Positions 4,373 through 5,607 of a DNA stretch of 44,731 nucleotides are shown one piece after another; within the stretch, counting starts at the first letter, position 1, and every line of letters starts with the position of its first letter. This DNA comes from a virus, in IMG/VR virus record IMGVR_UViG_3300035698_016751; one strand, given 5' to 3'. The position numbers and the translations under genes are program-made. The notes under the pieces are model-generated. The model saw nothing but the letters and a program-made list of their open reading frames with translations. It was not told where the DNA came from and did no database searches.

Positions 4373-4400
4373 TTTACTATGGACGTGAAATGACTATAAT
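4373..4400 (+). promoter_or_regulatory. sigma70-like promoter (TTTACT-N16-TATAAT) facing an ORF-free repeat region
   Basis: -35 TTTACT at 4373-4378 and -10 TATAAT at 4395-4400. No credible ORF lies downstream for about 600 bp. Confidence 0.35.
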
Positions 4401-4567
4401 ACTTATGTCTCAATGACACAACTAGTCTGGGCGTAAAGGGCACATAACGTTGTCCCCCCAGAATGAATTTTGGGACTACATAAAAGAAATCGCAAGAGTT
4501 AACCAAGGAGATGAAAATATGTTGTGAACGTAAAGGTCTCCGGCAAACCTAAAAGACCGGAAAGCCG

Positions 4568-5008
4568 TGTTTCGCATCCCCTTTGTCTTCGCAAGAAGAA
4601 TGTCGCAGAAGCACTACATTAATGCAAGACCAAATAATGTGTTTATTTGTTGCGTCTGGTGTCAGGCCAACATAATGGCAAAGCTTCCTAAAGGGAAGAA
4701 TTCTTCAAAAAGGAAAAATGATTATGAGTCCATGAAAGTAAAAGCAACTTTGTGTTTCGCACTCTTTGTCTTCGTAAGAAGAATGTCGCCATAAGCACTA
4801 CATGCATACTCAAGATTATTGTTTGTTGTTCTACTGACTAAACTGTGTCTGGTTGTCAGACCAAAATAAGATTTGTTAGTTAGTATGTACAACAAGAAGT
4901 GTCGAAAAAATATCGCCTACCTTGTCCTAATTTTTTAGGAATTTTGAACGGTATTACATCAAGAATATAACGGTGTCTTTAAGTAGCGGCTGGTGTCAGT
5001 CCGAAAAA
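4568..5008. repeat. tandem degenerate repeat array, three units with a period of about 185 bp
   Basis: Unit A (4568-4677) and unit B (4752-4868) share GTGTTTCGCA(T/C)(C/T)C(C/-)TTTGTCTTCG(C/T)AAGAAGAATGTCGC...AGCACTACAT...GTCTGG(T)TGTCAG(G/A)CCAA(C/A)ATAA. A partial third unit (4895-5008) keeps AAGAAGTGTCG and GGCTGGTGTCAGTCCGAAAAAAAAG. ORF 4567..4794 only translates the repeats. Confidence 0.5.
4876..4893 (+). promoter_or_regulatory. phage-type promoter box GTTAGTTAGTATGTACAA
   Basis: Member of the TAGTTARNWTGTACAT family. About 145 bp upstream of the PTH2-like gene ATG. Confidence 0.5.
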
Positions 5009-5037
5009 AAAGACTAATTTTAAGAAAGGTCAGTAAA

Positions 5038-5607
5038 ATGAATGAATTCCAATAGGTAAAACATGAAACTCAGTACGTTTACGTTTTTATACGTGAAGAC
5101 TTATCACATCCCCAACAGATTGTTCAATCCTGTCATGCAGCGATTGAAGCAAGCTCTCTGATTTCCCCTGATTCGGAACATCCGCACCTCGTTCTTTGTG
5201 GTGTTCGGAGTGAATCAGAACTCGAAAAAATCTCTGCTCGACTTAGAGCCTACGATATCCAATTCAAAGCATTCCGAGAACCAGACCGTAATAATGAATA
5301 TACCTCTATCGCTACCGAACCAATTAGTGGTAATAAGAGAAAGATATTCAAACGGTATCAATGTCTCAGGGATAAAACTGCCAAACCAAAACTAAGCGAT
5401 AATCAATGTTGTGGTAATTGCGAAAGTGGATGTTTTTCAGATAATTGCGCATGGTCATCTGGACATTGCGAATGGGAATCTGATGAAATTCCTAATTGGG
5501 TAAGTAGAGCTAGTTGTAAAGATAATGGGCAATTCAGATATTTTGCAGATGGCACAGACTGCTCCTGCTGGAAACCAATTAAGGAGAAAATAAATGTTGT
5601 GTTATGA
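5038..5607 (+). CDS. PTH2-family peptidyl-tRNA hydrolase-like protein with a Cys-rich C-terminal extension; N-terminus interrupted
   Basis: Frame 1 translation gives YVYVFIREDLSHPQQIVQSCHAAIEAS...HLVLCGVRSESELEKISARLRAYDIQFKAFREPDRNNEYTSIATEPISG. This matches the PTH2 core (KMVVVIRNDL...AQxxHAA...VVLKVxSEEEL...AGxTQI.PGxxT.LAIGP). The reading frame has no start codon after the in-frame TAG at 5053-5055. ATG 5038 (SD AAAGG) lies 5 codons upstream of that TAG. Alternatively, ATG 5063 in frame 2 joins the frame if the T5 run at 5084-5088 is read as T6. The C-terminal roughly 70 aa is Cys-rich (QCCGNCESGCF...CSCW). Confidence 0.45.

Follow-up and report, generated by a model that had tools for sequence, protein, structure and literature searches.

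In the 44,731-nt viral DNA record IMGVR_UViG_3300035698_016751 (hereafter the window), from a marine phage, we have characterized a stretch of about 640 nt that lies between a sigma70-like promoter and a gene of the peptidyl-tRNA hydrolase 2 (PTH2) family. We conclude firmly that it specifies a conserved, structured, non-coding + strand RNA whose association is with the PTH2-like operon rather than with the major vault protein (MVP) gene on its upstream side. Our favored reading, held at roughly even confidence, is that positions 4401-5037 form a multi-domain structured leader of this operon that acts in cis, or else the source of processed RNAs. An earlier note on this DNA, made without database searches, had proposed three degenerate tandem repeats of about 185 bp behind the promoter, as candidate small RNA (sRNA) genes or a repeat-based regulatory or processing site. 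A structured non-coding RNA is indeed present, with + strand structures supported by covariation; the repeats, by our analysis, are two ancient paralogous modules (units u1 and u3) plus a strain-variable duplicate (u2), and we see no boundaries that would make each unit an sRNA gene of its own.

The closest relative of the window's MVP, P0001 (73% identity), is found on Logan contigs L001-L005, and L001 is syntenic with the window (MVP, the same promoter, u1, a 51-aa open reading frame (ORF), u3, and the PTH2-like gene). Further relatives, found via a 151-aa neighbor protein (5944-6399) and a metagenome DNA scan with a u3 pattern, fall into the sub-lineages L123/L134/L138 and L130/L135/L136/L142. 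The promoter, u1, u3, and the PTH2-like gene are kept in three further lineages, and the order promoter, modules, Shine-Dalgarno (SD) sequence, ATG is kept in four lineages; the ancestral layout indicated by comparison is promoter, (u0), u1, short ORF, u3, PTH2-like gene, where u0 is a leader segment described below. The promoter match (-35 TTTACT, 16-nt spacer, -10 TATAAT) scores 10/12. The promoter scan is not significant by itself (5 matches versus 4.7 expected); we nonetheless credit the site, as the earlier note did, because both hexamers are conserved while the spacer has diverged in L001, L134/L138, and L135/L130. It is the one promoter-like site, 5' of all units and with no internal promoter after it, and a terminator scan found no terminator-like site in 3900-5700, hence none between the promoter and the PTH2-like gene.

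The RNA region holds no credible ORF, also as first described: the gap 3' of the promoter, without a conserved ORF, runs from 4366 (the end of a 68-aa ORF) to the ATG at 5038, and positions 4367-5037 contain none. Substitutions between the window and L134, L135, or L001 are distributed 47/43/47 across the three phases, without 3-periodicity, as compared to 11/6/26 in the adjacent PTH2-like region, and leader indels between the window and its relatives are mostly not multiples of three in length. A 75-aa ORF with a GTG start (4567-4794), which had been dismissed as a mere translation of the repeats, does exist, but is broken in L133, is absent from L001, L134, and L135, and has no match in Pfam or PHROG. 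Because codon periodicity is lacking, indels are non-triplet, and this ORF is not conserved, we regard the region as non-coding.

Each module is built around a 6-bp helix P2 that closes a conserved asymmetric internal loop (YUUG ... GAAU), followed by a 5-bp hairpin P3 (with loops GCAA, GUAA, UAAA, or UUUU), the sequence UACAU, a variable linker, and a hairpin P4, in which a bulged pyrimidine separates 3 bp from the 5 bp that are capped by a GUGY loop. We counted pairs using a hand-specified structure (19 pairs, 170 cells) on an alignment (A8) of nine modules, namely u1, u2, and u3 of the window together with u1 and u3 of L001, L134, and L135. Pairing is retained in 97.6% of cells, compared to 82.8% after column shuffles and 30-50% when the partners are slid, and 9 of the 19 pairs show double-sided changes; alignment of related phages for covariation, proposed in the earlier note, thus brought compensatory changes to light. 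They are plain between u1 and u3, which have P2 strands GUGUUUC/GAAGCAC versus AUAUCG/CGGUAU and P3 strands UCUUC/GAAGA versus UCCUA/UAGGA, so that u3 is a structural paralog of u1. Orthologs compensate as well: from the u3 of the window to that of L001, an A-U pair of P2 becomes G-C and a U-A pair of P3 becomes C-G, and the u1 modules of L001 and L134 have lost one base on each P2 strand. The RNA can be assigned to the + strand, the direction of the promoter, because pair 4/48 is U.G in 9/9 modules and pair 101/113 alternates among U.G, U-A, and G.U, and these G.U pairs would be C.A mismatches on the - strand. Folding energy is uninformative on strand, both strands folding better than shuffles (z = -2.7 and -3.9). 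R1, a covariance model built for the module, hits all of the known copies and only those, with 70-101 bits, across the window and 20 related or MVP-bearing loci (about 150 kb in total).

The individual units (Table 1) differ in how well they fit the original repeat description. Units u1 and u2 do recur at a spacing of 183-185 nt, whereas the helix of u3 starts only 158 nt after that of u2. A 26-nt box, CTTTGTCTTCGYAAGAAGAATGTCGC, occurs twice (4581-4606 and 4764-4789; 0 occurrences expected by chance), and GTGTTTCGCA and AAGCACTACAT also recur at 183-185 nt. The conserved box that had been ascribed to every unit, with its TCTTC/GAAGA hairpin, is present in u1 and u2; u3 lacks GTTTCGCA..CTTTGTCTTCG..AAGAAGAATGTCGC and has only TTGTC, GAAT, TACAT, and GCGGCTGGTGTCAG in common with them. 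Likewise, the element said to end each unit, CTGGTGTCAG, is present, except that u2 carries CTGGTTGTCAG instead; the motif GCGKCTGGTGYCAGNCC stands at 4652 and 4986, and its variant GTGTCTGGTTGTCAGACC at 4843. In u1, P3 is UCUUC-GCAA-GAAGA, UACAU occupies 4615-4619, and the bulged P4 (∼4648-4671) has a GUGU loop. In u3, P3 is UCCUAA-UUUU-UUAGGA, UACAU again follows, and P4 is GGCUG-GUGU-CAGUC with a bulged C. A candidate long-range helix, P1, would join AUGU (within 4519-4527) to ACAU (4616-4619) in u1, and the corresponding 5' strand in u3 is AUGUA (4885-4889).

Beyond the units originally noticed, there are two more structured parts. The 5' domain of u1 contains a candidate H-type pseudoknot, both of whose crossing stems change among lineages yet stay paired. 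Stem S1 (4534-4537 with 4547-4550) is AGGU/ACCU in the window, AGGUU/AACCU in L001, and AGGG/CCCU in L134; stem S2 (4539-4543 with 4557-4561) is UCCGG/CCGGA in the window and UGUGGC/GCCAUA in L134, and in L001 only GGC/GCC (3 bp) was checked by script. The conserved structured segment u0 is present in the window and in the L134 and L135 lineages and absent from L001. It was considered as a fourth module copy and rejected, as R1 does not match it. We also observe that the u3 internal loop (UACCCUU in L134/L135) is complementary to the 5' strand of pseudoknot stem S1 (AAGGGUA), over 7 bp in L134/L135, 5 bp in the window (ACCUU/AAGGU), and 4 bp in L001. Either a long-range contact between u1 and u3 or mere SD/anti-SD-like composition could account for this match. 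Another pairing, proposed by RNAalifold, between AUGUAC at the u3 5' end and GUACA just past the TAG of the PTH2-like gene, is disrupted in the window sequence and has no covariation, and we treat it as a lead only.

Apart from 185 bp (window 4577-4761) that it lacks, the strain variant L133 matches the window at 100% identity; the 5' domain of u1 there joins the body of u2 in a single hybrid unit. The polymorphic segment is flanked in the window by the 10-nt repeat GTGTTTCGCA. Since no exact repeat at the junction exceeds 14 nt, we infer that L133 is a real strain variant and not an assembly collapse, and its lack of the 185 bp therefore marks the u1/u2 tandem as a strain-variable duplication. 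The same deletion removes mini-ORF2 (below) entirely, a double loss that shows apparent redundancy.

Short ORFs with SD-like sequences are interleaved with the modules. In all lineages examined except variant L133, an SD-like sequence and start codon come within 24-60 nt after each ancestral module, with u1 preceding a mini-ORF or the 51-aa ORF and u3 preceding the PTH2-like gene, and the distance from u3 P4 to the PTH2-like ATG is nearly constant (33, 31, and 33 nt in three lineages). The first putative mini-ORF (4519-4527) overlaps the P1 motif, and that motif recurs in u3 without an ORF. The second, mini-ORF2, is ATGAGTCCTTGA (MSP-stop) in L134, L135, and L142, the conserved part being ATG AGT CCN TGA (window 4724-4735), in which the CCA/CCT change is synonymous; at its position L001 has the 51-aa ORF. 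A Pro-TGA ending, as in mini-ORF2, is a context known to terminate poorly. A third conserved short ORF with an SD-like sequence consists of the five codons that precede the TAG of the PTH2-like gene. Separately, the window has ATG TCT CAA TGA at 4405-4416, starting at about the predicted transcription start.

The PTH2-like gene is the first long cistron 3' of the RNA. The window protein scores 23.7 bits against Pfam PTH2 (cut-off 23), 29 of 34 relatives match PTH2, and the family profile finds peptidyl-tRNA hydrolase 24bt_A in the PDB with E = 2e-7. Its long frame contains no ATG, GTG, or TTG, and is entered from the ATG at 5038 via the in-frame TAG at 5053 (MNEFQ-TAG-VKHETQYVYVFIRED). The TAG is at codon 6 in every member of this lineage, with in-frame indels 3' of it. 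A frameshift or sequencing error (suggested by an out-of-frame ATG at 5063 and a T5 run) is ruled out by the in-frame ATG at 5038 and by conservation of the TAG in all relatives. Distant homologs (∼55-60% identity), in unrelated contexts and with no long leader, keep the TAG at codon 5 or 6: L143 (573-947) begins MSGFW-TAG, L144 (659-1018) MAGFS-TAG, L145 (214-579) MGFS-TAG, and L140 (about 4972-5324) MGFT-TAG, so that the subfamily can be written M-(x)-G/E-F-x-TAG. Database gene callers translate the amber position as Q. The amber codon is thus a property of the gene family, independent of the leader RNA, and because these distant homologs lack the leader, the latter is not required for expression or recoding of the family. 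ARAGORN detects tRNA(CUA) genes (amber suppressors, which it labels Pyl) near several of the homologs, in L145 at 49-125, 88 nt upstream of the PTH2-like gene, and in L140 (208-283 and 7737-7810) and L141 (207-282 and 7736-7809), two within 5 kb of the gene. In the window, TAG otherwise acts as a stop, ending MVP and other genes; genome-wide TAG recoding is unsupported there, since reading through TAG joins no recognizable domains. The conserved amber codon places the locus in what looks like a setting of amber suppression and translation maintenance. Our literature search found no report of a conserved amber codon in phage PTH2-like genes.

Two side observations concern this gene family. The window protein has a Cys-rich C-terminal extension of ∼75 aa (5376-5601, CCGNCESGCFSDNCAWSSGHCEW...CSCW) that is absent from L001 and from the L135-lineage protein P0277. 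In L140, the sequence 5' of the amber PTH2-like gene (4880-4975) holds a promoter-like site (TTGACA-17-TACAAT) and a GC-rich hairpin with a T run (GGTGGATG...CATCCTCCATTTTTCACTTTTT); the hairpin is possibly an attenuator, in which case this gene family would have leaders of more than one kind.

Table 1. Features of the RNA locus and the PTH2-like gene start (window coordinates)
Feature	Positions	Strand	Basis
Sigma70-type promoter	4373..4400	+	Promoter scan; hexamers conserved in L001, L134, L135
Leader segment u0, nested hairpin CUGGG..CCCAG around GGGCA..UGUCC, then GGGACUACAU	4401..4485	+	Alignments, RNAalifold
SD-like AAGGAG (4505-4510) and putative mini-ORF ATG TTG TGA (4519-4527)	4505..4527	+	ATG YTG TGA in all lineages
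Candidate H-type pseudoknot, u1 5' domain	4534..4561	+	Both crossing stems change yet stay paired
Module u1	4567..4672	+	R1, 91.8 bits; pair counts
Putative mini-ORF2 ATG ATT ATG AGT CCA TGA (MIMSP-stop), after AAAGGAAAA	4718..4735	+	Sequence, alignments
Module u2, duplicate of u1 body with diverged linker and P4 (GUCUG-GUUGU-CAGAC)	4752..4866	+	R1, 70.6 bits
Module u3	4885..5006	+	R1 match 4910-5006, 80.1 bits; compensatory changes versus L001, L134
SD-like AAGAAAGG (5022-5029), ATG 5038, in-frame TAG 5053-5055	5022..5055	+	Kept in all relatives
PTH2-family (peptidyl-tRNA hydrolase 2-like) gene	5038..5601	+	First long cistron 3' of RNA; Pfam, profile search

Searches for known RNA families and tRNAs, which the earlier note had also recommended, were negative. 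None of the 4227 models of Rfam 15 matches at its gathering threshold anywhere in the window, and relaxing to E <= 10 over 4050-5150 gave only chance-level matches inside 4400-5040, to an unstructured long non-coding RNA model and to DUF2815 (19 bits versus a cut-off of 41). The Rfam tRNA and tmRNA models have no match even at E <= 10, and ARAGORN likewise predicts neither kind of gene, whether in the window or in eight related loci. There is no Rfam T-box match at E <= 10, nor a terminator/antiterminator pair. The locus does have the marks of a 5' leader: a promoter precedes it and the first long cistron follows it, all in one orientation and uninterrupted by a terminator, and its secondary structure is conserved through compensatory changes.

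If the RNA is a cis-acting leader, the transcript would start at the 4373-4400 promoter and extend through the leader to cover the PTH2-like gene as well as the genes that follow. The modules would act as operators that bind a protein or an RNA, or that are remodeled by ribosomes on the short upstream ORFs, and they would thereby govern how well the following cistron is translated or how stable it is; alternatively, the modules may be processed into stable sRNAs. Cis-regulation, the roles of the mini-ORFs, and the link to amber suppression are all steps that we infer. We favor this reading because no terminator or internal promoter interrupts the region, an SD sequence and start codon come after the modules (L133 excepted), and the distance from u3 to the ATG is near-fixed. 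Several points weigh against it. The transcription start and the read-through into the PTH2-like gene are predictions from sequence alone; much of the covariation separates the paralogs u1 and u3, and there are only three independent lineages; and candidate P1 (AUGU/ACAU) never varies, leaving it without covariation support. An expression platform is also missing, as there is no terminator or attenuator, and a search for pairing of the module internal loop, as an anti-SD, with the downstream SD sequence found no common partner across lineages, the best partner differing among them. The amber PTH2-like genes of L143, L144, L145, and L140 do without such a leader, and L133 does without one module body and mini-ORF2, so that those parts are dispensable.

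The same modules might instead be trans-acting tandem sRNAs that are released from the primary transcript or delimited in some other way, a reading that we consider possible though rather doubtful; they could then serve as protein sponges, or as translation-related RNAs in an amber-suppressing phage. Two or three paralogous self-folding modules behind one promoter would suit this, as would a copy number that varies among strains and lineages as for gene-like units, and L145 holds its tRNA(CUA) at the same position upstream of the PTH2-like gene. It is harder to reconcile with the absence of terminator-like sites and internal promoters (no unit has the promoter and intrinsic terminator of its own that mark a stand-alone sRNA gene), with the fixed distance from u3 to the PTH2-like start codon, with the interleaving of SD-plus-start sites and modules, and with the lack of any module copy elsewhere in the related sequence searched. 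Action of the repeats as DNA, whether as origin iterons, protein-binding sites, or recombination sites, is very unlikely. The boxes are direct repeats, the strain-level 185-bp indel lies between 10-nt repeats, and both strands fold better than shuffles; yet the compensatory changes keep pairing and not sequence, the conserved G.U pairs are asymmetric between strands, u1 and u3 are alike in structure with little sequence in common, and no AT-rich unwinding region or change of skew appears here in the composition profile.

The remaining explanations tie the RNA to a neighbor or to a product of a familiar kind. Because a full-length MVP homolog (1447-4071, 874 aa; Pfam MVP_shoulder, 1.3e-23) stands immediately upstream, it is tempting to see the modules as a phage or prokaryotic counterpart of vault RNA that works with that protein: the arrangement MVP, promoter, RNA is common to the window and L001, and small RNAs occur in eukaryotic vaults (reviewed in bioRxiv 10.1101/2023.11.10.566534). 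Phage MVPs have previously been reported (bioRxiv 10.1101/2023.11.10.566534). The vault-RNA idea fails, and we reject it as highly improbable, on synteny, on the RNA-free MVP loci of other phages, and on Rfam. MVP adjoins the RNA only in the window/L133 and L001. The L134/L138 and L135/L136 loci (4-14.5 kb) keep the promoter, RNA, and PTH2-like gene with no MVP, and L135/L138 share the gene order on both sides (window 452-971 upstream, 5944 onward downstream) on a backbone that keeps the RNA but lacks MVP (tblastn included), so that MVP is an insertion beside the RNA locus and not its partner; compared to the L135/L138 backbone, this accessory insertion includes the small ORFs at 968-1396 and 4160-4366. 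The huge phages LR756500 and LR756501 also carry MVP, with coding genes directly downstream and no RNA gap, R1 matches nothing near their MVP genes or that of L006, and the Rfam vault model (RF00006) stays unmatched when the limit is relaxed to E <= 10. Degenerate or otherwise unusual tRNA-like genes, such as an amber suppressor for the TAG of the adjacent gene, would answer the need of that gene for UAG decoding and recall the tRNA(CUA) genes near its homologs in L145 and L140/L141. We hold such genes to be extremely improbable, because, beyond the negative ARAGORN and Rfam searches (ARAGORN finding none in the loci of this lineage), the aligned modules have 4-nt loops, lack a 7-nt anticodon loop in which CUA is conserved, and show no T-arm motif. 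That the region encodes a protein, through the GTG-start 75-aa ORF or another small ORF, deserves almost no credence in view of the substitution and indel patterns and the fate of that ORF in relatives. Even taken together, vault RNA, DNA iterons, tRNA-like genes, and protein coding account for only a small share of our expectation.

Compared with known systems, the proposed leader shows partial likenesses. Tandem-domain leaders include the tandem aptamers of glycine riboswitches and protein-binding translational operators; the window RNA similarly has two homologous self-folding domains in series, each near a ribosome-binding site, with structure held through compensatory changes, but differs in having no Rfam match, no terminator-type platform, and no consistent SD sequestration. 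The lambda bar minigenes are ORFs of two to three codons whose translation leads to peptidyl-tRNA drop-off and is toxic when Pth is limiting. Here too there are ORFs of two to five codons with SD-like sequences (ATG YTG TGA; ATG AGT CCN TGA) and a thematic tie to peptidyl-tRNA hydrolase; the putative mini-ORFs of the window differ in lying in the leader of a phage PTH2-like gene, the first ATG is within a helix motif that recurs ORF-free, and mini-ORF2 is deleted in L133. Autoregulation of prfB (RF2) involves an early in-frame stop codon and a +1 frameshift, and in stop-recoded phages (genetic code 15 type) TAG is read as sense with phage suppressor tRNAs. Shared with these are a translation-factor-like gene with a conserved early stop (TAG at codon 5 or 6) and, for the recoded phages, PTH2-like homologs that adjoin tRNA(CUA) genes. 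Unlike prfB, the PTH2-like gene needs read-through and not a +1 frameshift, and TAG is an ordinary stop elsewhere in the window; unlike both systems, the amber belongs to the gene downstream of the RNA and occurs also without the leader RNA. As to vault RNAs, the likeness is of small structured RNAs in several paralogous copies, beside an MVP homolog in the window; the differences are the lack of an RF00006 match and an MVP link that syntenic relatives do not keep.

The distribution of the RNA is narrow, being three lineages of uncultured phages from environmental metagenomes. No copy was found by blastn against GenBank phages or in a scan of 185,579 bacterial and archaeal genomes, and IMG/VR scans with three patterns gave only chance matches (screened by BLAST) or none. 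MVP homologs number in the thousands, mostly from Myxococcota metagenome-assembled genomes at ∼45-50% identity, and no close MVP relatives were found in IMG/VR.

Other features of the window can be mentioned. Just past the MVP stop, a perfect inverted repeat of 14 bp (AAAGGACGCTCAGG / CCTGAGCGTCCTTT; 4112-4145) stands ahead of TTTTAAAT. It is absent from L001 and is probably the MVP terminator, left uncalled by the scan since only 4 T follow. A perfect (AAACCT) x 11.5 repeat (24605-24673) encodes a (KP)n run in the ORF at 24584-24787. A UvrD-like helicase appears split into N-terminal domains (33999-35069) and C-terminal domains (37115-38233), ∼2 kb apart with four ORFs between; a mobile element may have inserted there, or the gene may be truly split. 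NAD+ salvage and synthesis genes are present at 26014-27225 (nicotinate phosphoribosyltransferase) and 27368-29134 (glutamine-dependent NAD synthetase).

Multi-domain structured leaders with short upstream ORFs are known as a general kind of element, whereas this motif and its gene association are not. A bolder and, on balance, improbable proposal is that the modules are a new class of riboregulator in the amber-recoding toolkit of marine phages, operators that would sense a suppressor tRNA, peptidyl-tRNA (via ribosomes on the mini-ORFs), or the PTH2-like protein itself, and so would tune production of a peptidyl-tRNA hydrolase that itself depends on UAG suppression to be made. Our literature search found no report of suppressor-gated peptidyl-tRNA hydrolase expression in phages. 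If the modules do regulate the gene behind them, they would represent a structured-RNA motif, so far undescribed, that controls a phage gene for translation maintenance. The context may outweigh the RNA itself: a phage PTH2-like subfamily with an amber codon at position 5 or 6, near tRNA(CUA) genes, suggests that expression of peptidyl-tRNA hydrolase may be gated by suppressor activity in TAG-reassigning phages.

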